Virus record (IMG/VR): IMGVR_UViG_3300040736_000114
Coordinates: 1 to 36,640 of that record
Direction: 5' to 3' (one strand)
From: a virus
Lineage: Duplodnaviria > Caudoviricetes
Length of the DNA: 36,640 bases
In this document: positions 19,196 through 36,640 of the stretch, piece by piece
Numbering within the stretch: the stretch's first letter is position 1
Layout: every line of letters starts with the position of its first letter
Translations under genes and position numbers: made by a program
The notes under the pieces: model-generated
Told to the model about the DNA's origin: nothing
Seen by the model: only the letters and a program-made list of their open reading frames with translations
Database searches by the model: none

Positions 19196-19209
19196 AAGGA
19201 TAGGTTCTG

Positions 19210-19506
19210 ATGGTAAGCGAAGACACTGCAATCATTATTAGTCTGACGGATACCCTGGATTACTCGGAGTATGTTGCCGCATGCAACCGCGCAGGGCTTA
19301 CCCCGCAAATCCTGGGAAAATTCGCGCAGACGGCGGGTATGATCGCGGTCGCCAAGCGGGGCGGGGCAGACGTAGCGGAGTACATGAAGATGATAGCGGA
19401 GATGAACGCGGCATACGACACGGCTCCGGAATCCTCGCACACTATCGCTCATGAGGCGCAGAGCAGGGGCGGGTGTCGTGGTTGCGGCGGCGGGAAAGTG
19501 CGGTGA
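19210..19506 (+). CDS. Small protein ending in GGCRGCGGGKVR
   Basis: AAGGA SD, ATG 19210; the stop overlaps the next GTG. Confidence 0.6.
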   Translation: MVSEDTAIIISLTDTLDYSEYVAACNRAGLTPQILGKFAQTAGMIAVAKRGGADVAEYMKMIAEMNAAYDTAPESSHTIAHEAQSRGGCRGCGGGKVR

Positions 19507-20501
19507 CGATAAATGTCTGCACCGGTACTCATTACAGTTGCGGAGAAAGCCGCAATTGGCATACCGGCGATTATACATCATCGCAGATAGCTCAGTCTCG
19601 CAACAACAAGACATCATTCTATTTGGGCGATGCAGAGATAATCTTACTGTCTCAGCAACGCAATTTCTCGATAGAGGGCAGCCTAAGCATAGACCTGAAC
19701 AGCGAAGCCTTTGTGATGTCTGACGGAGAAGGTGCTTATTTTCAATGCGCTACGGAGGTTGAGACTCGACAGAGTTCCGTATCCGAGGATTACGAAATTA
19801 TCACCACAACTATTCATTTTATAGACAGAAGACATAACTGCGGAGTTTTCACTGAAACAAAAGAAAAGCTCACCTTTAGCAAGAGCGGTTCCGATAAGGC
19901 GCAATTCAACGGAGCATACAGTGATATTTATTATCACAAACTCAAAGTAACAAACGCCAAGATAGTGACGACTACGACGTATTATGTAGTGGTCGGAGGA
20001 ATAAAATCAGTTCTTAAAACTGTTACCGAAACAACCTACCCATACACTGCGGTCAGTCCGTTGATTCTGGTCTACCCGAATCCATCATCAGGCGAGACGC
20101 CAATGGATTCCGAAATAATCCAATACGGGTTCTATGACTATTTCGGCGGCGGAGGGTCGCAGATAGAAGAGGATGGCGGAGACGATTATTACTATACGGA
20201 CTCGATGCGGATGGTGGGGGCAGCAAACGCGGCAGTCGATGCGGCCAAAGCGGCGGAGCGGTACGCAACGTATTTCCTCGGCTCCGAAACCAGCTATACC
20301 AATACAGAGAGCATGCCCATGCCCCCTGTCCCTACCGACCCCACTCCGTGCGCATCAATCGCCGTCGACCATGGCGGCAGGGCGTTCTACTCGGTGACGC
20401 TGGCCGGACAAAATTTCAACTACCTGGAAGATGGAGACCTGCTGAAATTGCTGCCGTATTTCTCGGCGGACCCGAAATTCTATCCGGTGGGGGTGATATG
20501 A
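19503..20501 (+). CDS. Beta-rich tail/virion protein
   Basis: Long ORF with GTGA-coupled start; Thr/Ser/Tyr-rich; lower GC in the 5' half. Confidence 0.6.
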   Translation: MTINVCTGTHYSCGESRNWHTGDYTSSQIAQSRNNKTSFYLGDAEIILLSQQRNFSIEGSLSIDLNSEAFVMSDGEGAYFQCATEVETRQSSVSEDYEIITTTIHFIDRRHNCGVFTETKEKLTFSKSGSDKAQFNGAYSDIYYHKLKVTNAKIVTTTTYYVVVGGIKSVLKTVTETTYPYTAVSPLILVYPNPSSGETPMDSEIIQYGFYDYFGGGGSQIEEDGGDDYYYTDSMRMVGAANAAVDAAKAAERYATYFLGSETSYTNTESMPMPPVPTDPTPCASIAVDHGGRAFYSVTLAGQNFNYLEDGDLLKLLPYFSADPKFYPVGVI

Positions 20502-20851
20502 CGATATTGGTGGGGATATTCGCGGCATATATTTTATGGGCTGTCTGTACCACGTATATTGTCACAGTTGTTTTGGTAAAGGGCCATATTTTCACGTATT
20601 TTCGGTGCTGGTTCCGGATGCGAACATTGTGGCTCATCAAAGGGCCCCCGGGAGATAGGCGGCATTTGATTGATTGCCGGCTGTGCACGGGGGTGTGGGT
20701 GGCGTTAGGGATACATGGCGCCGTAATGGTTACTGCCTATGCATTCGCGCGCGACATTCTTCCCCCGGCTGATTTGACGTTGGTGTTATTTTTGGCCGGA
20801 GTTTTTGTGACTATGGCGGGCGCGTATTTTATGGTCACACAGGAAAGGTAG
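20498..20851 (+). CDS. DUF1360-like membrane protein
   Basis: TM, IF..FR, LIDCRLCTGVWVA (CxxC...W), TM, TM; ATGA coupling. Confidence 0.6.
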   Translation: MTILVGIFAAYILWAVCTTYIVTVVLVKGHIFTYFRCWFRMRTLWLIKGPPGDRRHLIDCRLCTGVWVALGIHGAVMVTAYAFARDILPPADLTLVLFLAGVFVTMAGAYFMVTQER

Positions 20852-20856
20852 CAAGT

Positions 20857-20894
20857 TTCACTTGCACATAAACCGTTCAATATAATATTGAACA
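20857..20894 (+). promoter_or_regulatory. Promoter 2 with palindromic operator (ejection genes)
   Basis: TTCACT, 18 bp, TATAAT (20881-20886); the -10 lies inside GTTCAA-tataata-TTGAAC (20875-20893). Confidence 0.7.
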
Positions 20895-20917
20895 CAGATA
20901 AAAAAGGGGGTGGAGAG

Positions 20918-22255
20918 ATGGCCGTCCAGACAAGGAGAATACCCGCAATAGGTGACCTGTATGAAACCGACCCGACCAAGATAGCAGACACGTCGACCTT
21001 CGTGGGCGGAGTAAAGGGATTGGTGAGCGCTGCGGCGGGCGGTATCGCTAACAGCAATCTCGCTACGGGCCGGGCACTGCGGAAGGGAATCGGAGATTTC
21101 GCGTCCATCGGCTCCAATGCGGACAAGCCATTCATGGCACATTGGGACCCCGCGCTTGACCCGACGAACACGGCGGCTGCCGCGGCCAAGAATCAGACGC
21201 CGGCGGCAGTAAAGCCGAAGCCGGTACCAATCGTTTCGGAAGCGCAGGCCGGAGAGATTCCCAAACCTGTGGTGGATATCGGGGCAAGCGCGATGCTGGG
21301 TGCCGCAGGAGGAGCACAGCCGGTCAGCGCGGCTCTTGAAAAATCGGTGGGCACTCCCCCTGTGCAGACGCAGACCGCCTCCCCGACAGCAACGCCGAAC
21401 AAAGCGCAACCCATCGACGGCGGCAGCGGGTATGCCGTTGTAGACGGCAAGCGCATCAACTACCGGGATATCGGAGGTACGGGAGACCCGCTCAGAAAAA
21501 GCGGAGGGTACGTCATGGCGAAGTCAGTCCCGGGAATCGGAGAGACTCCGGCCGACCCGAGCATCGGAGCCATGGACCGTGAAGTAAAGAGGATCCAAGG
21601 GGTGCAGGATGACCTTAACCTGTCCGGTATCGGCGTCATGAGCCCTGATGCCGCACGTAAGTCCATCATGTCCCGGCAGGGTCAACAGGACCTGGACCAG
21701 CGGGGCGATCTGGTAAGCATTGCCGCGCAAAAAGAGGCGAATGACGCGGATTACAAAAACAGGGCGTTGGCCATCAATGCCCCGCTCATTGAGGCACAGG
21801 CCAAAAACAACCTCGCGGAGGCGCGGGCGAAAGAGTTCGCCGTGAGCCCCGCTGGTGTAAAACAGGCGCTGGCCAAGGAGGGCGCGAAAGACAATAAGGA
21901 TGCCGTAATGAAATATTTCGACCTGTTCAAGGGACGCAGCCTCCCGCAGCAATGGGCCGGAAAACACATGGAATTGGCCAAGAAATTCGCCATGTCGGAT
22001 GACCCGAGTAACGACTACGGAATTTTCTTTAATCGGGATACGCCGAATCGTGGTGGTATTGGCGTGAGCAGAAAACTGTTTCTCCCCATCGTGCAAGAGT
22101 ATCAGCGGAAAGGCTTCTCGGAAGGTGACGCAATGGCCCGTGCGGTTGGGTATCTGCAAAGCCTTGAAAAGACACAAGGCAAACTCTACGAGGATATTCC
22201 GAATATGGACCGGTTTGTGCACACTGATAACAAGCCTCAAGACGTGGGAGTTTAA
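20918..22255 (+). CDS. Probable DNA ejection/internal virion protein
   Basis: GGAG SD; Ala/Gly/Pro-rich N-terminus and helical C-terminus; directly upstream of the giant gene. Confidence 0.6.
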   Translation: MAVQTRRIPAIGDLYETDPTKIADTSTFVGGVKGLVSAAAGGIANSNLATGRALRKGIGDFASIGSNADKPFMAHWDPALDPTNTAAAAAKNQTPAAVKPKPVPIVSEAQAGEIPKPVVDIGASAMLGAAGGAQPVSAALEKSVGTPPVQTQTASPTATPNKAQPIDGGSGYAVVDGKRINYRDIGGTGDPLRKSGGYVMAKSVPGIGETPADPSIGAMDREVKRIQGVQDDLNLSGIGVMSPDAARKSIMSRQGQQDLDQRGDLVSIAAQKEANDADYKNRALAINAPLIEAQAKNNLAEARAKEFAVSPAGVKQALAKEGAKDNKDAVMKYFDLFKGRSLPQQWAGKHMELAKKFAMSDDPSNDYGIFFNRDTPNRGGIGVSRKLFLPIVQEYQRKGFSEGDAMARAVGYLQSLEKTQGKLYEDIPNMDRFVHTDNKPQDVGV

Positions 22256-22257
22256 TT

Positions 22258-25200
22258 ATGGGAGTGTATGATTACGAAGTTCCTGATTTCGTGAATGTGG
22301 ACGTGGACGCGATCCTGAAGGATTTCCGTTCAAAACCCATTACCCCCTACGTCCCTCATCCCGAACCGGTTGCCGAAGAGAGCGAATTCACCAAGGGCAT
22401 GAAACGCGGCATGGAGGGCTTGAAAAGCGCCGGGTATGGCGCCGCCGGTCTCGTCGGCTCCGGTCTCGGAATAGACTCCGTGCGCGACTGGGGATACCAG
22501 GGTTTCCTGGAGCATGAGGAAGAGGCGTCAAAACATGCGGGACGAGTCCAGAACATCGAGGACATCAAGAGCATCGGCGACGTGGGAGACTGGGCCGCCG
22601 GTACGTTCGGAAGTCTGGTGCCGTCCATCGGTGAGGCGGCGGTGACCTCGGCCGCCGGCGCGATTGCAGGTTCCGCCATAGGCCCGGAGGGGACCATCGC
22701 GGGTGGTATCACCGGTTTGGTCGGCAAACAGGCGGCCAAATCCATGGTTCGCAAGTTGGCCAGAACATATGTCAAGGATGGGATGGAACGCCAGGTTGCC
22801 AAAGCGGCGGCGAAAGAGGCGGTCGAATCACTCCCGGCCAAGGCGCTGATGCGCAATCTCGGCACCAAGGCAGGCATCGTCGCCGGAACGGCGCCCGTCG
22901 AGGCGGGGGGCATGTGGGGCGAAGGGATGCAGCAGGGGAAAGATAATCCCTATTCCGCCGCGGTATTCGGTACGCTCTCCGGCCTGTCGGAACTGGTCGG
23001 CGGCGAGGCGGAACTTATCGACATATTCACCAACCCTGCCCGTCAGGCGGTGAAGGGAAATATCGTAAAGCGAATCGGCGTGGAATTGAGCAAAACCATA
23101 CCGCAGGAAGCGGCGCAGGAAGCCACACAGGAAACGTTAGCTATCATCAACCGCAAAGTGGTGGACCCTTCGTACGAGATGTTCGGGGATGACGCCCGGA
23201 GCCGTGTGCTCAACTCGGCGGCCGCCGGAGCACTCGGAGGCGTGGCCTTCGGTGGAGTCGGCGGAGTGATGAGCGGAAGGAGCGAAGGGCGAGGAGCAGG
23301 GAATGAGGAAGAGACACCCAGCCCCCAGCCCCCAGCCACTGAAGTTGACCCATGGAAAGAGGCAGAAGAACCACCGCACCCGGTTACCGCGGCAGAAGCC
23401 GAAGAACAGCCGGTCATGCTGGAGGTGCCGAAGGGGCCGTTGACACGCGCAGTAGAGACAGGTACCGGGACCGTCCCGAATATCGGAGAAACTATACCGT
23501 CTATCACGCCGACGCAGACCACAGATGAACTGGTGCTGGATGAGGCTCGCGACTGGGCGAAGCAGATGGTCGGTTCGGGCCGGACGGATCTGATGCGCCA
23601 GCATGGCGAGCCGTCCAGAGTGTACGACCAGAGAATCCTGGAGTCGTACCAGAAGAAGGATGAGCGTTCAACGTCATCCAGCCCCAAATACGCCAATGTT
23701 GTCTTGGTAAATCCTGAAACCGGCGCACAAGAAACAGTCAAGCCGGAAGAGGTGGCGGACAGGCTCAAGAGCGGCTGGCGGACTCCGAACCAAGAAGAAT
23801 CACCCGTCACTCATCACTCGTCACCTGTCACTGATTTACATTCCGTCACCGACGCAGACCGGAACATGCTGCGCATGGCACAGTTGCGCGCTGATTATTG
23901 GGAGCGCGGTTCCCTGGATAACGGGCGGAGCAACAAGACGCAGCTCTTCCCGTGGCTGAATTCGTGGGGCAAGATCACACCGGCGGAAGTGGGCAAGGCG
24001 ATCGGCAATTTCCTGGAAGGTAGAAAGCTGGGGGATGTTCAGCAGCGACTAGTGGAAGCCGCGCTTGAATACGAGCGGGAAAACCCTGTGCCGTTTGCGG
24101 AAGAGCAAAAAACAACGAAGGAGGAATCTCAGGATGAAAAGGTTCAAGAAGAAGTGCGGGGGCAAGGGCCGGGGGAAATAGCGCCGGCGGCTACGAATGC
24201 TTTGCGGGAAAGGGCGCAACGGTACGCGGAAAAAGCGGGGTATGGTGATGTCTCGGACTGGAGCGATAAGGAAGTCGCGAGTTTTGTAAAAACCTACGAT
24301 GCGTGGAGATTCGCGGAGAGACAAAAGCAGCATCTCACGCAAAAGATAAGCCGGACCAAAGAGCCGAAGGCCCTGGAACGGCTGCAAAAAACCCTGGGTC
24401 AGGTCCGCAAAAGACAGGCTGAACTGGGGCTGAAAGGGGCCGCACGTGGCGAAGAAACCGGAAATCAAGGAACCGCTGGAAAAGCCTCGGCCGGAGCCGA
24501 AACAGTGCCGCCGGTGCAAAAACTGGATGGACAGGAAAGCGACGGAATGCCCGTGGTGCAGCCTGCCGATGAAGTGAAGGCTGTTCCACCCATCACTCAT
24601 CACCCATCACTCATCACTGATACTGAAAATAAAGGGGGGATGCAGGATGATTTGTCCGAAGTGCGGCAAGAAGAGCGCGGGACGGAGGGAGAAGTGCCCG
24701 CAGTGCGGGGAGAAACTGTAGGAAACGAACAAAGGAAGGCCAAGTTTGCGGAAGCCCGCAGGAAGCATATTCTGAGAAAGCTGGCTGAGGCGAAAGAACC
24801 GAAAGAGCGTGAGCGGCTGCAAAAGGCGCTTGCCCGTTTGGAGGCAGAACGTGATTCAAAACAGGGAAAAACCGAGGAAAAAGCCGAAGTAGGAAAGCTG
24901 GGTAAAGATATCCGTAAGCAGAGAGTTGAAGAGTTTAAGAAAAAGTATGGGTATACCGAAGCTGATAACGGAGAGAAACAGGATTCAAGAAAAGCCCCGG
25001 AAACACGCCAGGAGAAGCTGCTCGATACCCTTGAAAAAGCCTACGAGACACAGACAAAGCGGTTGAACAGTATGAATCTGCCCGTGCCTTCCAAGAATGA
25101 TGTGCGGCAGTATATCCAGGACGGCAAAGGCGCGGTAGCGGATGTTACGGCATCAATTCAAGATATCATGGAAGAGATGTCGAGAGCATCCGTTCAAGAG

Positions 25201-28200
25201 TCGGATTCGAGTATCCCTTCCACAACTCCCGCCACCGAAGAGGAGCGGCCTGCCGGGGCCGCTCCGCCCGCCTCCGATGAAATGTCGAAGGCACCAAGTA
25301 TGGTCAGAGATTTTGCCGCAAAGGTATTGAATGGTGAAAACCATCCAAAAAGACTGGTCTTCAAAGTGACAACGGAAACAAAACGCCAAAAAGTTATTAA
25401 CGATACCGGTGTTGATATAGGTGGATCAGTGGAAATGGTTCTTCCCGATTCAATTATCCATGTGAAAAAACGGCACTTGGATATTACTCTCGACGACTGG
25501 GAAAGACTCCCTGAGATAGCGGAAACATTCAACGATTCATACATTGGGCGCGCAATTGGAGATCCCAAAACAAAAAGAATGATTTTCGTCAGAGAAAGCG
25601 ACCCATATCAATATGTATATGTGGCTGAATTTGCAAGTGGAGGCAGGGGAAAAAGGCTTATCGTTAAAACCTATTTCAAAGATACGTCCAAAAATATTGA
25701 AGATTTCCTTGAAAAAAATGCGCAAAAAACAAAAGAGGCTTCTTCTGGTGTCGGGGATCTCACCCAACCTGCTTTACGCCCCCAGAATTCCACCTCTTCT
25801 GTGGATATTGTCCCCAATTCCGATGGTAATGTCAAGGAAAACGAAGGTAAAATAGACGACTTCGGCGAAAAGATAGGCGGAGCGAGGAAGGACACGGCGG
25901 AAAAGGTGTCCTCGCAAACGCGTAAGGCAAAAGACAAAGAAACGGCGCCCGCCTGGAAGAAGCGCTTCATCGTCTCCGAGAGCGTGAAGACACCGGGACA
26001 ATTTAAAATAATCGACACCAGGGAAGGGCGGTACAGCTTCTCATCGGGAGGGCAGCCCTTCACTTCGAAAGAGGAGGCCGAAAACGCCCTACCCGTGTAT
26101 GCCGTGGCGAAGACGCATCATGTGTACCAGAACGCCGACAAAACATGGTCCGTCTGGAAACGGGTGGGAGAACGGAAGCGGCTCAAGGTGGTGGACCGGG
26201 ATTTCCAGAGCCGGGAAGACGCCATGCGTTTCATGGCGAAAAACGCCGTAAGTCTTCTTGAAAACAAGACCAGCTTCGGCGAAGAGATTCTTCCGGTTCC
26301 GGAAATAGCCGTGCGCAAGGGCGAGGAGAGGCGTACCGGCCCGGCGACGCCTGAGATGTTCATGGAGACCTTTACGCCGCGCGGTATCGAGTTTGGCAAT
26401 TGGACCAACCAGGAAGAGCGGCAGCAGGTCATGGACCACGCCTATGATGGGCTCCTCGACCTGGCCGAGGTTCTGGGCGTCCCTCCCAAGGCGCTGATGC
26501 TGAACGGCGAACTGGCTATCGCCTTCGGAGCGCGCGGCCAGGGTCTGTCCGGAGCCAAGGCCCATTACGAGCGCGATTACGGCGTCATCAACCTGACCAA
26601 GATGAAAGGGGCCGGTTCCCTGGCCCATGAATGGTTCCATGCCCTCGACCATTACCTGGGAAGGCTGGACGGCAAGGCTACGTCCGAAAAGGAACAGAAC
26701 AAGCGTGGTGACCAGGTTTACAAGACCAGGGGGACCGGCGACTATCTGAGCCACGGCGCAAGCTACAAATCACAGCTGCGGCAGGAACTCCGGGAGGCGT
26801 ATACCGCCCTTGTCAAAACGATGTACAAAAAGGCGGAGCAGTACGTCGAGGACACCGAGAAGACGGAAAAGTTCGTCGGCGCCGCGCGGGAAAACCTGAA
26901 GGAAACGCTGGACAGGATTCGGACCGACCTTTCCCGCGACCTTTCCAATGAATACACCTGGAGAAAGAGCAAGAAAGGACTTGCTCCGGCATCCGCCGAA
27001 CAGCTTGCCGAGTTCGACAGGCTGGCGTCAATCCTTGTGGAAGGCGGTGACCTGGCAACATCCTTCCGGCAGGATAATCCTACAGCTCCGGCCAACAGCC
27101 GCGCGGCTTTTTCGGGCCGTAACACCAATGAAAGCCTGGAGGGTATCAGCCGCATACTCAAGGCCGTGCGTAACCGCTCCGGGTTCAACGCCGAACGGAC
27201 CGGGACGCTGGACAGGCTCCGCGCGGATATGAACCTGTATGACCAGCGGCTGAAGATGCTGCAAGAAGCGGAAAGCGGTACGGAAAAAACCAAACAGGTA
27301 CCCACATCGTTCGCCATGGAAGCGAAGAAGATGGATCAGGCCCGGTCGGGAGATTATTGGAGCGAACCGCACGAAATGGCGGCCAGGGCCTTCGCCGCCT
27401 ATGTGGAGGACAAGGTAGCGGAAAGGGGTGGGCAGAGCGATTTCCTTGTCTATCATGCCCATGGCGGTATTGTCGTGCCAATGATAGACGGCTTTGTAGC
27501 ACGGCCGTATCCGGAAGGTAAGGAGCGGCAGGCGTTGAATACGGCTTTTGACAAATTCGTCAAGGCCATTCGCACCGAAGAGACCGAAAAAGGCGTAGTG
27601 ATGTTTGCTCTTGCGCCAAATCCAGGAGCGCCGTTCTATTCCAAACTGGAAAAGGTTGTTGAGTCGAAATTCCCCGGAAAGTCTGACACGCGCATGGCCG
27701 CCCAGATGCTCCAGGCGTGGCAGAAGAAAGGAGAGTTTACATCTGACGAGTTGGGGCAGAGCGGACTAAAGGATTTCCTTGCCGGAGAGACGAAAGTTAC
27801 GAAGCAGGATGTGCTTGATTTTCTGAAAGAGCAGCAGACGGAGTTTCAGGATGTGGTGCTGGGGGAGGAATCAAAAGAGCAGTTGTATGAAGGGCCAGAT
27901 TCATGGGGCGATATGCCAGCCATGACTTTGGAGTCGTGGAAAAACGAGATACCGGAAAATGAACAGGAGGCCAAGGCAACCCATTGGTACGATTGGTATA
28001 GAGACGATGCGTACCGTGCCGAGGATATGGGAGAGGACCTTTCATGGAGCGATTACCGTGACGGATTGATTGATGATTTGAAGAAGTCGCAAGAAATTGA
28101 ACAACCTACTCACTTCTCCCGATACACTGAACCCGGCGCGAAAGAAGGAAGTTACCGGGAGATGTTTGTGACGGTGCCAAGTCAAAAACCCGTTAGTGTC

Positions 28201-31200
28201 CAAGGTGAATATAGGCTCAAGTCCATTGGCGATGGGCGATGGGAGTTGACAAAAGGCGGTCAGTTTGTTGGCGAATACCCGTCTAAGGCAGAAGCTGAAT
28301 CCCGCATGGCAAAAGGTTCTGAAAAGACTTTCGGTTGGCAAGATGGTCACTCCCAATACTCCGACATCAAAAATCCCGTAGTCCGTATCCGCTTCAACGA
28401 GCGTGAAAACTCCGGAAAGCGTATTCTTTTCGTCGAAGAGATGCAAGGCCCTTCCGACACCGAACAGAAGAAAATGCCGGAATGGCTACGAAAGCGCATC
28501 TATGATATCGGTGTAAAGCGTATCCTTGCCTATGCCAAGGAGAACGGTTTTGACGGGGTTGCGTGGACAACGGGGGAGATGCAGGCGGCGCGGTATGACT
28601 TGTCGAAACAAATCAGCCGCATTAAGTATGAAAAGTCTTCGACCGGCGTTTCGAATGAGGTCAATGAGGAGTATGTAAAAGACGGCGTATTGCTTGCCTA
28701 TGATCTTGACGGCAAGCAGGTCATCAAGGAGTACATCTCCGATGGCGAGTTACCGAATTATATCGGAAAGGATGCTGCCGAAAAATTGATGAAACTGAAT
28801 CCTGAGCCGGGTCGGACTCTTGGCGGCTTGGGTGGCATTTCAAGAGAACTGTCTGGACTTGATTTGAAAGTAGGCGGCGAGGGCTTGAAGCGTCTTTATG
28901 ATCAGACCATACCCGCCATGTTCGCAAAGTACGGCAAGGAGACGGTGGGGAAAGTAACGTACTTTCATTCCGGGCAAAAGCAATTCGGTGAGGGAAACGC
29001 GCTTACAGCTGCGGAACAGGAAGAATATGACATCCTTGAAGAACTGGAGAGCAATGACCGGCCGATGACGCAAGCGCAACTTGACCGTTTTGGAGAGCTT
29101 GATGATCGTTTAGCAGCTATAAATTATGAACGGCCCGAAATGAAACCGGGGGCAATAACAGTCCCCTTCATCCCCATCACCGAAAAGACAGCCTCTGTTT
29201 ATCCTCTATATTCCGCGGCTACTTCCAGGGCCTCCTCCGGCCTACCGGCCGCCGACATCAGGGCCTCCTTTGAGCCGGTCTATAAGAATATGCCCAAGGC
29301 CCCTCCCTGGCGGGTGGTGCAGACCGCCGCCGAGCTGCCGAAGCGGGCGCTGGATGATGCTGCGCGGCGGGGAATCCCGCAACGCTTCCTGCAAGCGGTT
29401 TACTTAGGGCATGAGGTCGTCTACGTCGCGGACCACTTCAATTCCATTGAGGAGGCGAAGCAGGTCATCCTGGAGGAGGTCGTGGTGCATCACGGCCTGC
29501 GCGGCATCATGGCGCGGGATACCTACGAGAAACACATGCTTCAGGCGGCGCTCTGGTACGCCAACAAGCGCACCGACGAATGGAAGGCCCTGGGCAAAAC
29601 CTACGGACTCGACCTCAAGAGCCGGGCGGGACGCATCGAAGCGGCAGAAGAAATGTTGGGACGGGATGCCCGGACCGGCACGGATTCAACCCTGATGACC
29701 CGCATCATAGCCGCAGTCAAGGAGTTCCTGAGAAGCATCGGTTTTGATTTGGGGTACGGAGAGTCGGAGATCCGGGAGCTGCTGGGCAAGGCCAGGAGAT
29801 TCGTAGAAGGAAAAGAAACTCCCCGCCTTGAGAAAAAGGGCAAGGGGGGGATAGACTACGGCGCCCTTCTCCGTAACCTCCGGGAACGGGGAATCACGGA
29901 TGAGCAGCTTCAGGCCGTCGCGGCCTTTGAGCCGGGAGGGGCAAATTACGCCGTTGCTGAACAGTCACGAAATCGAATGGTGGAGGTTCTGGATGCAGTC
30001 AAGAAAATAGCTGCCGGCAGTGATGAGGAGACATTAAAAGATTTTCGCGGAGATCTGGAGACTCTGGGTGGAACAAACGACGTAACTCTTGTCTGGGGTG
30101 ATTCTAAAAAAGGATTGCGTCATATCGGTGAGAAACGCGGGGCGCAAGTAGTCGCGGACGTATTGACGGCAGTGGCTCATGGTTCAATCGCCAAGCAAGT
30201 AGCTGGCAAGAAAACCGTACACATTGTCTTGGGAAACACTGAGGCAGTTCTTTCGCTGGATGAGCATGGAAAACGAAAGTCCTGGTTGTTGACTGGCTGG
30301 AGAATAGGCGAGTCCGATGCTTTCGGTGGGGTTGGTGCCCATGCCGATGCTACGCAGGCCGGACCTGTCTTTAGTCGTTCCGACCTGGGAGCGGACTCTG
30401 TAAAACAAATTATAGCAAATATGGAGAATATTGAAAAGCTCTTATCAGCAACCAAATTCGCCCTCTCCCGGCTCCAGGACGTAAAAACCCAAATCACCGA
30501 CAAGGGTGTCTCACTGAACACCGCCGAGCGGGAGGTGCTGGAGGCCGACCGCGCGAAGGCGGTTGAAGCCATCGGCGAGACGGTCAAAGACTACGACGAA
30601 CCGGGCCGGTTCCTGTTCCGGGCAATCTACGAATCCGACCAGGACAAGGCCCCCGGAGTGGTGCCATACAATCCTGAGCGCGGGCACTACGCCGCCGGGG
30701 AAAACCTCAAGGGCTCATGGTGGACCACATCCCTTTCCACGGCCCAAGAGATAGCCTGGAGCAAGGCGCGAGGCGGTAAAAAGGTGAAGATTGTTGCCCT
30801 TCCGTTGGATAGGTTGCCAAATGGCAACATATACATCCAAAACACCAACCCGCCGGGAATGGTCTATGACCTGTTTGTGGGCCTGCCGGCGGATGTGCCG
30901 ATGTCGGCCGTGCGGGAAATGCCGATTGACTCCGGTATCCGCTATGCCCTGGCGGACCGCTTCGCCGGGTACGTGGGAGAGATGCAGGGCGGCGCGATCT
31001 GGAAGAAGATTGCGCGGCTGCTGAATCCGTTGGACTGGTCACACGTTTATGGCTGGTTCAAAAACATTACTCCTCAGAATATCCAGAACGGCCTCGCCCG
31101 CGTCTTCCGCGACCCTATCGGGGCGGCGGAGGTGGACGAAGACAAGAAGATTTTCGTGGAGAGGGGCATCCAGCGGGAGAGGAACAAGACAAGCCTTGTG

Positions 31201-34200
31201 CTCCGTCTGTTCGGCTGGTTCGGGCCGAGAGAGAAAATTCCGAACTTCTTCGAGCGGCTCACCAAAACCTTCACCACCTTTCACAACAATGACCTGACAA
31301 CGGCGTGGGGCCGGATAGTCGATGAATTCGGAAAACTGTCACAAGGTGACCGCAAGGGTGTGGACTGGCTCCTGTACCGTGGGGATGTTGACGGCAAGGT
31401 GTACCGGACCTATGACATGGTGAAGAATGACAGGAAGGTGTCCAAGAAACTCCCGTCCGAAGCCGCGTTCAATACCTACCTGAAGGTGAGGACGCATATC
31501 GACACCACAGTCGCCGATACCATCGAGGATATAACCCGCCAGTTCATGGCGGAAAACGGCATGTCCGGAGATGAGATAGAAAAGCACATTTTCAATTACC
31601 GGCAGGGTCTCGCGCGGCACGTCGGCTGGTTGCCGCGCAACCATGGCGAGGGGAATTGGCAGGTCAACATCTATCAGCGCATCACCGGTCTCAAGTGGGA
31701 CATCGGACAGTATCAGGCTGTGAAGCATGTGAAGTATCTGACCAAAAATGGTAAAACCGTAGAGTTTGAAAGGACGATAGATGCGCTGTCCGCCTATCTC
31801 CCCTACTTCCCGAGCCATGATGTTGCCAAGGAAATCAAGACGCTGGCGAAACGCTTCGGCCTTGCCTACGAACAGGAAAACGGTCGGCAGCGCGTCTATG
31901 TGGACAAGGGGGCTCAGAAGAGATTCGGTAAAGCTGTTGAGAAACTGAAGGCGTCCCTGGCCGGAGAAGGTCTGGACCAGGCCAAGCGCGAGGAGATGCA
32001 AAAGAAACTGGAAGAATTGGAAACCGCGCTTACTTTTATCAAAGACCATTCACCGAGTAGACAGATCCAGTTCTTCGTCAAGCAGGCGTCCAAAATAATC
32101 GGGCGTTTGGAGTCAAAGAACCTGATGAGCATCCACCGGGCCAAGGAGAATCTGAAGCAGGCCATCGAGGACAAGGAATCCGCTACGGAAATCAGGAGGC
32201 TCGAAGACGAACTGGAAAAACTGGGTGACGGAAGCATCAAGGTGAAGGTCTATATGCGACTCCAGAGTTCCAGGTCCAAGGCCGACAAGCACATGAAGGC
32301 CGTGCGGGCCGACCTGAGAAAGGCCATCCCGGAGAATTTCCGGGAAAGCGGCATCTACGAAGTAAAGGTCAAGTTCAATGACCGGATATCCGAATCCACC
32401 TACGGAGACATGCAGAACGATTTCGCCATGGAGCAGGCCCAGTTGCAGGCAATCAGCATGGCGTCATCCAAACAGGAGATTACCAAGGAAGAAGCGGCGG
32501 CAATCCGCCACCAGATTATCCAATCGACCGCCGAAGTGCTCATGGCCCGCGGGGCCGGAGCGCACAGGATTCAGCGCGCCGAGTACCTGATAGAAGGCTA
32601 TGACACGGAAAACACCCTCGATGCCTACCAGGATTACATGACCGGCACGGCGGGGATGCTGTCCAAGGCAAAATACGCACACGACCAGTTTGAGAATTTC
32701 CGCTATGCGAAGCCGGAAGTGAAGGCGTGGGCCGAGCAGTACATCAAGGACACCCTGCGCAACATGGGGTATGGCGACATGGTGAGCGGCAACCTGCGCT
32801 CTCTGGCCTCCTTGGCGTATCTCGGGTTCAAGGTCTCATCCATGGTCATCAACGCCACCCAACCGTGGACTCTCGGGGTCGCTCACTTGGGCATGCTCAC
32901 CAAGCGGAGCCCGCTGAAGGCGATTGCCAAGGCGCAAAGGGATATTCTGAGCTGTAAAACAGCGAAGAAAGAGGGAGATATAGGGATCACGAAGTCTGAA
33001 GCGGAAATATTCGCCTCGGAAATATGGAAAGAGCAGGAACAGAAGACTGCTGTGCACGAAATGGCAGGTTCCTCGGAAGGCGCTACCGGCAAGGTGTCCC
33101 GCTTCATGCACACCCTGACCGACAAGGCGCTGTTCGGCTTCCAGGAAGTGGAGATGCTCAACCGAAAGACCGTCATCCTTGCCGCGTACCGCACCTTCAA
33201 GGCGGACGGAATGGAGCATGGCGAGGCGCTGAAAAAGGCCCTGGACGTGAACGGGCAGGTCAACAACGAAATGAGCCGGGCGAACAAGCCGGGAATAGCG
33301 CAGAATCCTGTCGGCAATACCCTGTTCACCCTGCAAAGCTTCACGTGGCGTACCTGGAACTGGGTGTTCAACCGACTCACCAGCGGCAAGAAGGAAGACA
33401 TGATTGCCCTGCTCCGCTACGCCGCCGCCATGGCGATAATCGGCGGAGTAGCCGCCCTGCCGGGCGGGGATGAGCTGGATAAGCTCTATCAGATGCTTTT
33501 CGGAGAGAGCCCGAAGCTGGCGTTCCAGAAATGGACGAAGAAACACGCCCGCGAATACGGCTCCCTGGGCGAGATGGTCAACGGCTTCGCCTGGCACGGA
33601 CTGGCCAGCGCCACCGGCGTCAACATATCCAACGCCATGCGCCTACAGATACCAATTGTTTCCCCGGTACTGTCGGGCGATTCCCTTCCCGAGGCCGCAG
33701 GCGGAGTGTTCACCGGCCTCGCGCAAAAGGGCGCCAGGGCGGTTACGGCGGCAAGCCGGGGGGATATGTACAGGATGATTGAGAATATTTCCCCAGAGGC
33801 CCTGTCCGGAGGCATGCGGGCCTACCGAATGGCCACCAGGGGCGCCACCACCGGAACGGGAAAGGTCATTTTCGACGAGAGCGGAAGGCCAATGAAATAC
33901 GGCGCTGGTGAGGCGGTTACCAGGGCGCTCGGTTTTCAGCCGTCCCGGGTATCCGAACGCAACGACCTGACCAACGTGGAAAAGGGTCTGTCGGTACACT
34001 GGAAAGAAGAACGCGGGGATCTGCTCGCCGAGTTGCGCCTCGCAAAACCGGGGGAGCGCAAAGAGGTGACGCTGAAAATAATGCGCTTCAACCGACGTCT
34101 CCGCGATTCCCAGGCCGCCGGGCTGGTGCCGGTAATCAAGGCGGAAACCATCCGGCGGACTCTGGCCGAAAAGCCGAACAAGCGCAAGGCTGAATGGGAA

Positions 34201-34221
34201 CAAAATCAGTTGACTACGTAA
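22258..34221 (+). CDS. Large polyvalent (ejected virion) protein, 3987 aa
   Basis: Gly/Ala-rich membrane-like N-terminus; PBECR-like RNase (~25300-25730); KIDDFGEKIGGARKD (LPD5-like, 25849); zincin HEWFH (26626); DYWSEPHEMAARAF (LPD1-like, 27352); LFVEEMQ domain; EEVVVHHGLRG metallopeptidase-like (29473); barnase/colicin E5-like RNase (~29976-30305); ART-like (~30604-30900); PLxRFG-like WLPRNHG (31627); helical C-terminal domain. Confidence 0.85.
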   Translation: MGVYDYEVPDFVNVDVDAILKDFRSKPITPYVPHPEPVAEESEFTKGMKRGMEGLKSAGYGAAGLVGSGLGIDSVRDWGYQGFLEHEEEASKHAGRVQNIEDIKSIGDVGDWAAGTFGSLVPSIGEAAVTSAAGAIAGSAIGPEGTIAGGITGLVGKQAAKSMVRKLARTYVKDGMERQVAKAAAKEAVESLPAKALMRNLGTKAGIVAGTAPVEAGGMWGEGMQQGKDNPYSAAVFGTLSGLSELVGGEAELIDIFTNPARQAVKGNIVKRIGVELSKTIPQEAAQEATQETLAIINRKVVDPSYEMFGDDARSRVLNSAAAGALGGVAFGGVGGVMSGRSEGRGAGNEEETPSPQPPATEVDPWKEAEEPPHPVTAAEAEEQPVMLEVPKGPLTRAVETGTGTVPNIGETIPSITPTQTTDELVLDEARDWAKQMVGSGRTDLMRQHGEPSRVYDQRILESYQKKDERSTSSSPKYANVVLVNPETGAQETVKPEEVADRLKSGWRTPNQEESPVTHHSSPVTDLHSVTDADRNMLRMAQLRADYWERGSLDNGRSNKTQLFPWLNSWGKITPAEVGKAIGNFLEGRKLGDVQQRLVEAALEYERENPVPFAEEQKTTKEESQDEKVQEEVRGQGPGEIAPAATNALRERAQRYAEKAGYGDVSDWSDKEVASFVKTYDAWRFAERQKQHLTQKISRTKEPKALERLQKTLGQVRKRQAELGLKGAARGEETGNQGTAGKASAGAETVPPVQKLDGQESDGMPVVQPADEVKAVPPITHHPSLITDTENKGGMQDDLSEVRQEERGTEGEVPAVRGETVGNEQRKAKFAEARRKHILRKLAEAKEPKERERLQKALARLEAERDSKQGKTEEKAEVGKLGKDIRKQRVEEFKKKYGYTEADNGEKQDSRKAPETRQEKLLDTLEKAYETQTKRLNSMNLPVPSKNDVRQYIQDGKGAVADVTASIQDIMEEMSRASVQESDSSIPSTTPATEEERPAGAAPPASDEMSKAPSMVRDFAAKVLNGENHPKRLVFKVTTETKRQKVINDTGVDIGGSVEMVLPDSIIHVKKRHLDITLDDWERLPEIAETFNDSYIGRAIGDPKTKRMIFVRESDPYQYVYVAEFASGGRGKRLIVKTYFKDTSKNIEDFLEKNAQKTKEASSGVGDLTQPALRPQNSTSSVDIVPNSDGNVKENEGKIDDFGEKIGGARKDTAEKVSSQTRKAKDKETAPAWKKRFIVSESVKTPGQFKIIDTREGRYSFSSGGQPFTSKEEAENALPVYAVAKTHHVYQNADKTWSVWKRVGERKRLKVVDRDFQSREDAMRFMAKNAVSLLENKTSFGEEILPVPEIAVRKGEERRTGPATPEMFMETFTPRGIEFGNWTNQEERQQVMDHAYDGLLDLAEVLGVPPKALMLNGELAIAFGARGQGLSGAKAHYERDYGVINLTKMKGAGSLAHEWFHALDHYLGRLDGKATSEKEQNKRGDQVYKTRGTGDYLSHGASYKSQLRQELREAYTALVKTMYKKAEQYVEDTEKTEKFVGAARENLKETLDRIRTDLSRDLSNEYTWRKSKKGLAPASAEQLAEFDRLASILVEGGDLATSFRQDNPTAPANSRAAFSGRNTNESLEGISRILKAVRNRSGFNAERTGTLDRLRADMNLYDQRLKMLQEAESGTEKTKQVPTSFAMEAKKMDQARSGDYWSEPHEMAARAFAAYVEDKVAERGGQSDFLVYHAHGGIVVPMIDGFVARPYPEGKERQALNTAFDKFVKAIRTEETEKGVVMFALAPNPGAPFYSKLEKVVESKFPGKSDTRMAAQMLQAWQKKGEFTSDELGQSGLKDFLAGETKVTKQDVLDFLKEQQTEFQDVVLGEESKEQLYEGPDSWGDMPAMTLESWKNEIPENEQEAKATHWYDWYRDDAYRAEDMGEDLSWSDYRDGLIDDLKKSQEIEQPTHFSRYTEPGAKEGSYREMFVTVPSQKPVSVQGEYRLKSIGDGRWELTKGGQFVGEYPSKAEAESRMAKGSEKTFGWQDGHSQYSDIKNPVVRIRFNERENSGKRILFVEEMQGPSDTEQKKMPEWLRKRIYDIGVKRILAYAKENGFDGVAWTTGEMQAARYDLSKQISRIKYEKSSTGVSNEVNEEYVKDGVLLAYDLDGKQVIKEYISDGELPNYIGKDAAEKLMKLNPEPGRTLGGLGGISRELSGLDLKVGGEGLKRLYDQTIPAMFAKYGKETVGKVTYFHSGQKQFGEGNALTAAEQEEYDILEELESNDRPMTQAQLDRFGELDDRLAAINYERPEMKPGAITVPFIPITEKTASVYPLYSAATSRASSGLPAADIRASFEPVYKNMPKAPPWRVVQTAAELPKRALDDAARRGIPQRFLQAVYLGHEVVYVADHFNSIEEAKQVILEEVVVHHGLRGIMARDTYEKHMLQAALWYANKRTDEWKALGKTYGLDLKSRAGRIEAAEEMLGRDARTGTDSTLMTRIIAAVKEFLRSIGFDLGYGESEIRELLGKARRFVEGKETPRLEKKGKGGIDYGALLRNLRERGITDEQLQAVAAFEPGGANYAVAEQSRNRMVEVLDAVKKIAAGSDEETLKDFRGDLETLGGTNDVTLVWGDSKKGLRHIGEKRGAQVVADVLTAVAHGSIAKQVAGKKTVHIVLGNTEAVLSLDEHGKRKSWLLTGWRIGESDAFGGVGAHADATQAGPVFSRSDLGADSVKQIIANMENIEKLLSATKFALSRLQDVKTQITDKGVSLNTAEREVLEADRAKAVEAIGETVKDYDEPGRFLFRAIYESDQDKAPGVVPYNPERGHYAAGENLKGSWWTTSLSTAQEIAWSKARGGKKVKIVALPLDRLPNGNIYIQNTNPPGMVYDLFVGLPADVPMSAVREMPIDSGIRYALADRFAGYVGEMQGGAIWKKIARLLNPLDWSHVYGWFKNITPQNIQNGLARVFRDPIGAAEVDEDKKIFVERGIQRERNKTSLVLRLFGWFGPREKIPNFFERLTKTFTTFHNNDLTTAWGRIVDEFGKLSQGDRKGVDWLLYRGDVDGKVYRTYDMVKNDRKVSKKLPSEAAFNTYLKVRTHIDTTVADTIEDITRQFMAENGMSGDEIEKHIFNYRQGLARHVGWLPRNHGEGNWQVNIYQRITGLKWDIGQYQAVKHVKYLTKNGKTVEFERTIDALSAYLPYFPSHDVAKEIKTLAKRFGLAYEQENGRQRVYVDKGAQKRFGKAVEKLKASLAGEGLDQAKREEMQKKLEELETALTFIKDHSPSRQIQFFVKQASKIIGRLESKNLMSIHRAKENLKQAIEDKESATEIRRLEDELEKLGDGSIKVKVYMRLQSSRSKADKHMKAVRADLRKAIPENFRESGIYEVKVKFNDRISESTYGDMQNDFAMEQAQLQAISMASSKQEITKEEAAAIRHQIIQSTAEVLMARGAGAHRIQRAEYLIEGYDTENTLDAYQDYMTGTAGMLSKAKYAHDQFENFRYAKPEVKAWAEQYIKDTLRNMGYGDMVSGNLRSLASLAYLGFKVSSMVINATQPWTLGVAHLGMLTKRSPLKAIAKAQRDILSCKTAKKEGDIGITKSEAEIFASEIWKEQEQKTAVHEMAGSSEGATGKVSRFMHTLTDKALFGFQEVEMLNRKTVILAAYRTFKADGMEHGEALKKALDVNGQVNNEMSRANKPGIAQNPVGNTLFTLQSFTWRTWNWVFNRLTSGKKEDMIALLRYAAAMAIIGGVAALPGGDELDKLYQMLFGESPKLAFQKWTKKHAREYGSLGEMVNGFAWHGLASATGVNISNAMRLQIPIVSPVLSGDSLPEAAGGVFTGLAQKGARAVTAASRGDMYRMIENISPEALSGGMRAYRMATRGATTGTGKVIFDESGRPMKYGAGEAVTRALGFQPSRVSERNDLTNVEKGLSVHWKEERGDLLAELRLAKPGERKEVTLKIMRFNRRLRDSQAAGLVPVIKAETIRRTLAEKPNKRKAEWEQNQLTT
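23800..23834. repeat. Heptamer array TCACnnn x5
   Basis: TCACCCG TCACTCA TCACTCG TCACCTG TCACTGA. Confidence 0.8.
24586..24620. repeat. Second heptamer array TCACnnn x5
   Basis: CCACCCA TCACTCA TCACCCA TCACTCA TCACTGA. Confidence 0.8.
24647..24721 (+). CDS. Nested 24-aa zinc-ribbon micro-ORF (+1 frame of the giant gene)
   Basis: MICPKCGKKSAGRREKCPQCGEKL* preceded by AAAGGGGGGA. Confidence 0.4.
   Translation: MICPKCGKKSAGRREKCPQCGEKL
25724..25801 (-). ncRNA. Predicted antisense sRNA 1 after the PBECR-like domain
   Basis: Minus-strand TTGACA (25835-25830), 17 bp, GACAAT (25812-25807); nested stems 25733-38/25793-98 and 25743-48/25782-87; ends in a minus-strand U-tract. Confidence 0.5.
30309..30402 (-). 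ncRNA. Predicted antisense sRNA 2 after the barnase/colicin E5-like domain
   Basis: Minus-strand TTTTCA (30437-30432), 17 bp, extended -10 TGCTATAAT (30417-30409); closing stem GAGTCCG/CGGACTC (30310-16/30392-98) enclosing two hairpins. Confidence 0.55.
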
Positions 34222-34256
34222 GAAGAATGGGGTACTGTTCAACAAGTTATTGAACA
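34210..34256 (+). promoter_or_regulatory. Lysis promoter with palindromic operator
   Basis: TTGACT (34210-15), 17 bp, TACTGT (34233-38); TGTTCAA-caagtta-TTGAACA at 34236-34256. Confidence 0.7.
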
Positions 34257-34304
34257 ATCAAAGCGACACTGGGTAAGTTTCAACCCGGATGGATGCGGGA
34301 ACTG

Positions 34305-34347
34305 AAAGCCCCGGTGGGACCGACAACGGTTCTATCGGGGCTTTTTT
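34305..34347 (+). terminator. Intrinsic terminator/attenuator upstream of the lysis genes
   Basis: AAAGCCCCGGTGGGACCG-acaa-CGGTTCTATCGGGGCTTT followed by TTT. Confidence 0.85.
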
Positions 34348-34364
34348 GGTATGGAGGTGCAAAG

Positions 34365-34706
34365 GTGGCGGCGACACCGGATCCGCTGTACACGAAATTA
34401 TTGGAGCAGGGCATCATTTTGTTGTCCGCGACTGTTATCACTGTAGGAGGAGCACTGTGCGGCATCCTGATTTACATCTACCAACAAGGACAAAAGGGAT
34501 TTTCAGAGGCATTGGAAAGCCTTGAAAATCGAATCGGTGAAATAGCGAAAAGCCTGTCAAACCTTGCTGAAAAGCTCTTTGAACGGACTGATGACCATGA
34601 AGCCCGCTTGTCTGCCATGGAGGCCGTATGCAAGGACCGACATAGCGGTGGACAATACCCGTATCGCAGGAAATCGGATTCACCTCACGGAGTTGAGGAG
34701 CCATGA
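34365..34706 (+). CDS. Holin-like protein (single TM plus coiled coil)
   Basis: GGAGGT SD before GTG 34365; one TM then a coiled coil; first gene of the lysis module. Confidence 0.55.
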   Translation: MAATPDPLYTKLLEQGIILLSATVITVGGALCGILIYIYQQGQKGFSEALESLENRIGEIAKSLSNLAEKLFERTDDHEARLSAMEAVCKDRHSGGQYPYRRKSDSPHGVEEP

Positions 34707-34720
34707 AGGAGGGAAGAAAG

Positions 34721-35059
34721 ATGAAAACTGTCGTATTTGGAGTAATGTTGGCGGTGATGTGTTTGCTGTCCGTAGGATGCGCCACAACCACAACCAAGGA
34801 AATGGTGCAGGCGGAACTCACGCTGATGCAGACGAAAATCGCAGCAGCGTCAACCACGTCCGCGCTCTGCCAACAGGGCATAATGTCTCAGCAGGATTGC
34901 GCCACGGCGCTGGCCGCCTATCAATTGTCACAGGTGTCGAGCAATACGGCCCTTTCGCTGTTGCTCGCCAATTGCACGGACGCGGATCTTTCCGCTCAAA
35001 TCCAGGCGGCCATAGCGGCTGGATTCCCTGGTTTATCTTTTGTTAAGGGGACGCAGTAA
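34721..35059 (+). CDS. Lipoprotein (possible spanin component)
   Basis: Signal peptide with lipobox-like LSVG-C; alternative ATG at 34703. Confidence 0.65.
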   Translation: MKTVVFGVMLAVMCLLSVGCATTTTKEMVQAELTLMQTKIAAASTTSALCQQGIMSQQDCATALAAYQLSQVSSNTALSLLLANCTDADLSAQIQAAIAAGFPGLSFVKGTQ

Positions 35060-35496
35060 TGGATAGGCTGGAGGGTTTAGACCCCGGATTCAGGGCAACG
35101 GTGGAGCGGATAGTCTCGGAACTGGAGAAAATCACCGGGAGAAAATGGCTGGTCACGTCCGGGTATCGTAGTATCGCGGAGCAGGATAAACTCTACGCTC
35201 AGGGGCGGACAGCAAAAGGACCTGTAGTGACCAACGCCAGGGGAGGTTCTTCGGCTCATAACTGGCGACTGGCGGTCGATATCTGGCCGCTTCAATCGGA
35301 CGGTTCGGTTGACTGGAAGGCACAGAAGCCAGTTTTCAAGCCCCTTGCAGAGCTCGCCAGGGCGGCAGGATTAACACCTGGATACGATTTCAAAACCCTG
35401 TCAGACTGTAGTCACATAGAGGACCCGGATTGGCGGAGCGTTCGGGCAGATTGGGCGAAAAAGAAGCTTTTGGAGAAAGGGTCAGGCATTGGGTGA
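35059..35496 (+). CDS. Endolysin, M15 family L-Ala-D-Glu peptidase (CwlK/Ply500-like)
   Basis: GYRS..EQ..LYAQGRT...VTNARGGSSAHN..LAVD...D.SHIE. Confidence 0.9.
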   Translation: MDRLEGLDPGFRATVERIVSELEKITGRKWLVTSGYRSIAEQDKLYAQGRTAKGPVVTNARGGSSAHNWRLAVDIWPLQSDGSVDWKAQKPVFKPLAELARAAGLTPGYDFKTLSDCSHIEDPDWRSVRADWAKKKLLEKGSGIG

Positions 35497-35560
35497 CCTT
35501 GAAAAACCGCTCAAATCGAAAATTTGGAAGCCGGTTCCGTGAGGCTCGAAAGGTAACATC

Positions 35561-35932
35561 GTGATACTGGGAACATTTGAACTCGGATACGAATACGTCA
35601 CGCTCGAAGTGCGCAAAGGGTCAGGCGGATCATTTACCTGCTGTCATACAAACCATCTGAGACCTGTAATCAGCGTCGGAATGGATTACGAAAAGTTTGA
35701 AAGAGTCGTCGGTTGTCTTATTCACGAAGCATTGGAATTTTCGTTATCTCGTATGCAGGCACGTTTTAGCCCATCACTCGAACTGGCATGCGACCACAGT
35801 GCGTATCTGTTCAGCTTCGGTCATGTAACACTTTCAGAAGCATCGTTTATGGTGGCTGAATATCTTACATCAGCCATGCCTCATCTCAAAGAAGCATGGG
35901 AGAAAAGGGCAGAACCGGACATGTGTCTATGA
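35561..35932 (+). CDS. Small zincin-like protein (HExxE)
   Basis: GCLIHEALEF following beta strands; GTG start with AAGGT upstream. Confidence 0.55.
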   Translation: MILGTFELGYEYVTLEVRKGSGGSFTCCHTNHLRPVISVGMDYEKFERVVGCLIHEALEFSLSRMQARFSPSLELACDHSAYLFSFGHVTLSEASFMVAEYLTSAMPHLKEAWEKRAEPDMCL

Positions 35933-36438
35933 TGTACTTGGCAGCAAAACATACAGCCACCAGTTTCTTCGGGAAACTCATCAAACTGTATACCTTTTCC
36001 CGGTACTGCCACGTCGAGGTGATATTCTCCGACGGCAAATGGTTTTCAGCCAGGGAATTCAAGGGCGCCGTGTCGTTCCTGCCAGGACCTCCGTCGGATG
36101 AGACCCCTGATATGTACGATTACTTTCCGCTGCCCTTCACACCGGAGCAGGAAGCCCGCATGCGGACATGGGCGGAAAAAGAAAGATTCCGGGATGATGG
36201 GTCGCCGTGCAAATACGATGTCAGAGGCGTCCTGTGCAGCTTTCTGCCAATCCCCATCGGATGGCAAAGCGCGGATGACTGGTTCTGTTCTGAGATAGTG
36301 TCGGCCCTGTTCCAGACCGAGGGATGGTTTGCGGGATATTCCGCGGCGGCGATATCGCCCAGGAAATGCGTGGAGCTCTATAAAAAGGAGATATACAGCT
36401 ATGGGAAAGTGGCTTGTTACGAGACTGAAAGAGTATGA
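35929..36438 (+). CDS. Permuted papain-like NlpC/P60 (YiiX-like) phage protein
   Basis: YCHVEV (His), KYD..G, WFCSE (Cys) in permuted order; ATGA coupling. Confidence 0.8.
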   Translation: MMYLAAKHTATSFFGKLIKLYTFSRYCHVEVIFSDGKWFSAREFKGAVSFLPGPPSDETPDMYDYFPLPFTPEQEARMRTWAEKERFRDDGSPCKYDVRGVLCSFLPIPIGWQSADDWFCSEIVSALFQTEGWFAGYSAAAISPRKCVELYKKEIYSYGKVACYETERV

Positions 36439-36640
36439 GACAACCTTTGCCGGGATTCTCCTCGGCGCTGGAGCCGGGGCCGCTATGAGCATCAAATCCG
36501 GCCAGATCACGAAGACGGCGCTTATCACCGGCGCTTCAATCGGCGCATGTGGGGCACTGATGAAAACTCCCACATGGGCAAGGATATTCAATAACAGACA
36601 GGATGAAACTTCAAGTAGCACTGAAAGAAGTAATCAGTAG
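36401..36640 (+). CDS. Holin-like two-TM membrane protein
   Basis: AAGGAG SD; WLVTRLKEYETTFAG followed by two Gly/Ala-rich hydrophobic segments. Confidence 0.6.
   Translation: MGKWLVTRLKEYETTFAGILLGAGAGAAMSIKSGQITKTALITGASIGACGALMKTPTWARIFNNRQDETSSSTERSNQ

Follow-up and report, generated by a model that had tools for sequence, protein, structure and literature searches.

The window analysed here, 36,640 bases long, is a provirus record from the Caudoviricetes (IMG/VR IMGVR_UViG_3300040736_000114), with genes that include those for a terminase, a P22-like portal, the capsid and lysis. Between its head/tail genes and its lysis genes lies a giant plus-strand gene (22258..34221) encoding a protein of 3987 amino acids. 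Two predicted RNase domains of this protein, D1 and D2, are each followed by a putative small RNA gene on the opposite strand, and these domain-RNA units are the subject of the present analysis. Because the protein combines LPD1 and PBECR3 domains with a DarB-like C-terminal region, it belongs to the polyvalent proteins as defined by Iyer 2017 (PMC5512222, here and below as far as its available text goes), and gene context together with that source makes it likely that the protein is packaged in the virion and injected.

D1 (amino acids 1038-1148; 25369..25701, plus strand) matches the Pfam family PBECR3 (PF18812) with 34.9-36.2 bits, above the cut-off of 30, and with 29.9 bits when the whole protein is used as the query. 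D2 (29971..30309, plus strand) is a divergent PBECR1-like domain, with a score against PF18809 (17.5 bits, E 0.006) below the cut-off of 27.6 and similarly weak matches in five of seven members. The assignment of both domains to the BECR fold (that of barnase, EndoU, colicin E5-D and RelE), made in the first-pass annotation from the letters alone, was supported by profile search for D1 and fell short of the threshold for D2. Residues His44, His49 and Thr114 of D1 are almost invariant among 20 homologs, His51 of D2 is invariant in all seven aligned sequences and is accompanied by a Thr/Ser within the motif LLTGW, and the His and Thr/Ser positions given for active PBECRs are kept in both domains. 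Solved BECR toxins have an N-terminal helix and a sheet of 4-5 strands. AlphaFold models (mean predicted local distance difference test scores of 81.6 for D1 and 89.5 for D2) gave fold lists headed by RelE, BrnT, CdiA and colicin D/E5 chains at middling scores; D1 resembled RelE/BrnT/CdiA-type chains with Z up to 5.6, and the top match for D2 was CdiA-CT NC101 (Z 6.0, root-mean-square deviation 3.6, 82 residues aligned). Foldseek returned no match for D1 at E≤0.001. We regard D1 and D2 as putative BECR-type RNases, a prediction drawn from profiles, residues and models.

A convergent, sigma70-type promoter-like site is found on the minus strand behind each domain, TTGACA-17-GACAAT behind D1 (site 1, 25835-25807) and TTTTCA-17-TATAAT with an extended TG behind D2 (site 2, 30437-30409). 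Between each site and its domain lies a sequence with the potential to form a structured RNA on the minus strand, the closing stem of which begins 5-10 nucleotides (nt) past the -10 box. RNA1 (25724..25802) is predicted to fold into a closing stem (P1), an inner stem and two hairpins, and ends in a terminator-like U-tract. RNA2 (30310..30398), delineated from an alignment of 22 sequences, forms a three-way junction (P1/P2/P3) with conserved loops of 15 and 7 nt and has a weak U-tract in the window (four U in nine). The arrangement proposed in the first-pass annotation, in which each RNase domain is followed by a minus-strand fold and a convergent promoter, is therefore present at both places. 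The two sites are among three with 10/12 consensus matches in 18000-36640 and, as scored by our own uncalibrated weight matrix, are the top two of three distinct minus-strand sites reaching at least 9.5 in the 12-kb gene, where the plus strand has none. The third (28784) is accompanied by neither a closing stem nor a U-tract and was ruled out as a similar unit. The total of promoter-like sites in 18000-36640 is at chance level, 12 against a shuffle mean of 9.8. Folding z-scores favour the minus strand (-5.1 for RNA1 at 25729-25802 and -3.5 for RNA2, against -1.9 and -1.8 for the opposite strand), although these boundaries were picked post hoc and looser ones give just -0.9 to -2.5. Since promoter counts are at chance level and the z-scores depend on the boundaries, the window alone provides modest evidence, and we let homologous sequences, rather than the window, decide whether the units are real.

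For RNA2, 21 distinct loci could be aligned with the window, after leaving out duplicates, two spurious loci (L013/L014) and two distant ones (L004/L015). The minus-strand alignment folds as the three-way junction, with 90.9% of 616 cells able to pair and changes on both sides of the helix in 22 of 28 pairs (147 cells, 22 sequences, the counts being of sequences and not of independent events). On each of five measures 0 of 500 shuffles equalled the alignment, slid controls reached 30-42%, and RNAalifold recovered a near-identical structure unaided. G-U cells outnumber A-C cells by 64 to 10 when the family is read on the minus strand, which fixes the strand of the RNA. Conservation is higher in unpaired columns (0.87) than in paired ones (0.68). 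Protein constraint was rejected as the source of this conservation, as synonymous codons are held fixed (TTT-AGT-CGT in 20 of the 22 sequences) and the element persists unchanged beyond the stop codon in three loci (L023-L025). The position of site 2 is the same in the homologs, and the homology of D2 to 18 loci mostly stops near the promoter. The loops of the D2 family often share a short word within one RNA (ACUAA in 5/22), and the divergent L026 carries GAGAA in both RNA loops. The sequence GCGUA, which the first-pass annotation had singled out as lying beside a helix in both RNAs, is located in a hairpin of RNA1 and in junction J2/3 of RNA2; neither the RNA1 homologs nor a third RNA family have it in common with them, and it was rejected as a common motif.

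The homologs of RNA1 are near-identical copies and six distant loci, either too similar or not alignable, so that covariation could not be counted. The -35 box of site 1 is retained in all four near-identical loci, where the -10 box reads AACAAT or GACAAT, and one change in a near-identical RNA1 copy converts a predicted U-G pair to U-A. RNA1-like architecture recurs behind the D1 homologs L041-L043, L045 and L178, two of which (L043 and L178) have a hairpin motif in common. A stop codon closes the domain in L041 and L042, where the promoter, closing stem and U-tract come after it in non-coding DNA. The linkers behind D1 homologs (P0009-P0054) fall into several sequence groups, often ending in an S-I/V...V-K-like pattern, which is what the antisense -10 and -35 boxes leave behind in the encoded protein. 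A unit of 640 bp comprising D1, RNA1 and the promoter (25252..25891; G+C content 0.37-0.46, below that of the flanks) is 96% identical in three relatives (L001, L002 and L046), and homology stops on both sides. These limits support the earlier suggestion that domain, RNA and promoter are captured or exchanged as a whole cassette. A closely similar D1, with 98% identity, is present in an uncultured Geobacter metagenome-assembled genome (L044), and this suggests the host group of the prophage.

The same arrangement was surveyed at 48 ends of PBECR1, PBECR2 and PBECR3 domains, 21 from the D2 clade and 27 others, with duplicates and one repeated domain excluded and a search window of +50 to +230 past the domain end that was chosen after the D2 clade had been examined. 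Minus-strand promoters scoring at least 9 were found at 35 of the 48 ends, against 5/48 on the plus strand and 29/309 in control windows; when the D2 clade is removed the figures are 22/27, 4/27 and 21/182. A held-out clade (80 loci, of which two were too short and 30 distinct) had sites scoring at least 8 in 14/30 cases, against 0/30 on the plus strand and 20/150 in controls. Promoters of the Bacteroidota have the consensus TAnnTTTG, and this sequence occurs just upstream in 10 of the 28 held-out loci that could be anchored, where about 0.02 would be expected per 50 nt. The held-out clade has an RNA family of its own, with 26 of 28 sequences aligned, double changes in 15 of 16 pairs and 88.2% of cells pairing; its covariation score was reached by 0/500 shuffles and its pair count by 5/500. 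Covariation is thereby present in two independent RNA families. Helicobacter polyproteins can contain five or six PBECRs, and there most of the domains come with a site of their own (two scored low, at 6.0 and 7.6), while in BcepMigl the sole minus-strand site of at least 9.5 within 14 kb sits behind its PBECR1. Cultured phages with a unit are BPP-1, BcepMigl, PBC5, Atu_ph08, Itty13, SuMu and phiHP33.

What the families have in common is a plan, consisting of a closing stem, two or three hairpins and often a U-tract, and not a sequence. Searched against 44 sources, the RNA2 model matches just RNA2 and, weakly, L047. By these comparisons the RNA families follow the clades of PBECR domains, one family to each clade. 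When the search was started from the RNA side, 9/10 and 27/35 pattern matches lay behind their cognate domain at a constant distance; of the 35, three are identical to each other and look like chance. Genome surveys gave few matches (2/301, 4/301 and 2/239), and one plasmid search gave none. In SuMu (L056), past the MuF stop at 1803, the RNA that follows MuF-PBECR3 contains a T-arm-like stretch, GGUUCGAGCCC. The RNA family of canonical PBECR1 domains has the loops CUGUG and CUGUC, which we take to resemble the GUN-anticodon loops cleaved by colicin E5; by this analogy, such loop words possibly point to substrate mimicry.

The unit is missing behind several other domains. LPD1 (27331..27579, plus strand, used as a control in the window), LPD38, SLT and MuF domains have no such promoter behind them, in one case each. 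It is likewise missing behind two chromosomal solo genes with PBECR3/2-like products (L050:1468-1997 and L051:283-815; 2/2), both of which are followed by DUF2283 genes, and these pairs likely represent a protein-antitoxin form. Nor is there such a promoter behind Mu gp30, the stop of which overlaps gene G and which is described as inactive in the available text of Iyer 2017 (PMC5512222). Rfam produced no match in the window or in 20 loci, and in nine loci two chance-level matches off the elements. ARAGORN found 0 tRNA or tmRNA genes in 26 loci. An antisense protein acting as an immunity factor was also ruled out, the antisense open reading frames (ORFs) being 13-145 amino acids long, below 30 in 9 of 48 cases, and unconserved. 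Elsewhere in the polyprotein there are two HExxH-like zincin motifs, AHEWFH and LEEVVVHHGL (26353-26700 and 29400-29550), and behind RNA2 an unannotated domain (30490-30930) without a Pfam or PHROG match. The R...WWTTS...E spacing of this domain is reminiscent, we presume, of ADP-ribosyltransferases, and a weight-matrix scan of the gene placed no antisense promoter behind it.

Taken together, the homologs indicate that the units are real, a widespread and apparently undescribed set of antisense RNA genes with conserved structure that accompany PBECR domains in many unrelated phages. No literature description of a PBECR-linked RNA was found, although subscription journals and closed bioRxiv supplements (e.g., structured-RNA catalogues) may contain such motifs, and the accessible part of a 2026 BECR preprint (10.64898/2026.08.28.747851) mentions no RNA partner. 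As for function, we lean, by somewhat more than an even balance, towards the RNAs being antitoxins, each specific to its own PBECR RNase domain. The clade-specific loops, the position of the unit where an immunity gene would sit and its absence where a protein partner is present argue that the RNA is a ligand of the domain beside it. Each RNA would bind and inhibit that domain in the manner of an immunity factor, the conserved loops and junctions possibly engaging the cognate active site much as a substrate would. Host RNA polymerase would make the RNA, of 75-95 nt, constitutively, both in lysogens and as soon as the DNA has entered a cell, thereby shielding the cell that produces the polyprotein as well as lysogens struck by related virions, while an injected domain would be at work in a naive cell for as long as its RNA had yet to be made from the incoming DNA. 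Polymorphic toxins require an adjacent immunity factor, according to the available text of PMC5576092. Antisense coding within the linker would keep such a factor beside the toxin domain, which would be useful because no immunity ORF can follow a domain buried in a polyprotein.

Several points weigh against the RNAs being antitoxins. For these domains and this phage, RNase activity, toxicity, binding and transcription are predictions, and the matching of domain to RNA may be due to nothing more than their physical linkage. There are just one or two negative controls of each kind. In one PBECR1 clade a Lys occupies the position of the conserved His of D2 and the RNA is still kept, hence its presence is not tied to the obvious catalytic residue; moreover, PBECRs need not be lethal, as argued in the part of Iyer 2017 available (PMC5512222). 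Five of the 35 RNA-side matches (four distinct), and L033 in addition, are orphan RNAs without an intact domain. These orphans (L033, L146, L157/L159, L160 and L177) have kept the fold and mostly the promoter, with the PBECR gone or only its last strand left, and the one in L177 is free-standing between genes. They fit orphan immunity, but equally an independent function of the RNA.

The persistence of the RNA in the clade without the usual His also suits an RNA that is a cofactor, guide or scaffold, whether as a ribonucleoprotein packaged in the virion or assembled after injection or as the object of a domain that processes or carries RNA. Linkage, clade specificity and loop conservation would be the same, and RNA binding by inactive PBECRs is suggested in Iyer 2017 (PMC5512222, available text). 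We nevertheless consider this role unlikely, as the RNAs have no variable, target-like segment (the stems vary by compensation and the loops are fixed) and PBECR3-like solo toxins exist without any RNA. About as improbable is an autonomous decoy against a host defence, such as an anticodon nuclease or a system recognizing tRNA-like or CRISPR-repeat RNA, that hitch-hikes beside its source domain. The orphans with fold and promoter intact, the free-standing one included, and the cloverleaf-like appearance of some families are what a decoy would predict, whereas the fixed spacing behind the cognate domain in 27/35 and 9/10 matches, the unrelated loop sequences of different domain clades, and the lack of any tRNA call in the 26 loci or of an Rfam match at the elements, CRISPR repeats included, are not. 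Less probable again is a cis-antisense regulator of the OOP or type I kind, which would lower or cut the late mRNA, either by pairing with it or through convergent transcription. The RNA is complementary over its full length to the late transcript of the phage and its promoter is convergent, yet complementarity to its own mRNA arises by construction; a plain antisense RNA does not need conserved loops, the invariant loops and junctions and the multi-way fold would be left unexplained, and one ORF can hold several units at a long distance from where translation begins. Very improbable is a mobile RNA element acting autonomously, a ribozyme or another kind, that inserts behind these domains. Conserved junction nucleotides and cassette-like exchange might point to it, but the families have no common core, no Rfam ribozyme is matched and the exchanged unit takes in the protein domain.

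The type III toxin-antitoxin systems, to which the units had first been compared, share with the antitoxin role proposed here the principle that an RNase protein is inhibited by a small structured RNA. In ToxIN, AbiQ, CptIN and TenpIN, RNA repeats in tandem lie upstream of the toxin on the same strand and are co-transcribed with it. The units described here consist of a single element, downstream, on the opposite strand and with its own promoter; the domain is of BECR type and not ToxN type, Pfam giving PBECR only and Rfam no match, and the toxin is part of a virion polyprotein. The parallel does not extend to layout or toxin family. In type I systems the antisense RNA targets the place where translation of a small toxin mRNA starts, and RNA1 and RNA2 lie ~3.5 and 8 kb inside the ORF. 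The MuF polymorphic toxins are closer in setting, with a phage-delivered toxin domain, an element directly downstream and a proposed protection of lysogens, but there, in the available text of PMC5576092, immunity is provided by a small ORF, as opposed to a convergent RNA gene that can lie within the reading frame. No small ORF follows D1 or D2, as the frame runs on. The PBECR1/2/3 families, their virion-gene context and their domain mosaicism are those of Iyer 2017, the accessible text of which gives PBECRs neither an RNA partner nor an immunity factor (PMC5512222).

A candidate unit is present behind all three PBECR domains of jhp1044 from phiHP33 (L180; weight-matrix scores 10.6, 7.3 and 12.0); a strict pattern for the extended -10 gave 0 sites there. 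In the same gene Pfam DUF3519 spans a PBECR end and the RNA-encoding linker, and part of this 'protein' family may reflect RNA constraint. The hp0488 gene of H. pylori is, we assume, a member of the HP1116/jhp1044 family. Northern-validated antisense RNAs are listed for hp1116 (HPnc5970, HPnc6000) and hp0488 (HPnc2240, HPnc2250) in Table 1 of PMC8322730; the name of hp1116 is also used for PBECR phage proteins ('HP1116/jhp1044-like'), and the available text attaches to the RNAs no function or domain link. The hp1116 RNAs are candidates, on suggestive evidence, for units of this kind.

Up to 26% of polyvalent proteins contain PBECR domains, and no target or inhibitor is named for them in the available text of Iyer 2017 (PMC5512222). 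A dedicated RNA partner for each domain, if true, would explain how several RNase domains are tolerated in one virion protein, would add a second toxin fold to those controlled by RNA antitoxins and would yield many new protein-RNA pairs with built-in specificity. It would also suggest what orphan antisense RNAs known for a long time, among them those of H. pylori hp1116, may do. More tentatively, and with the balance against it, virion-injected BECR RNases may each be silenced by a clade-specific RNA encoded in their own linker codons, in modules that shuffle and act as a dead-man switch. Toxin and antidote would then shuffle as a single in-frame module, the incoming DNA would have to survive and be transcribed to silence the injected RNase, and the switch would punish hosts that destroy phage DNA while sparing lysogens.

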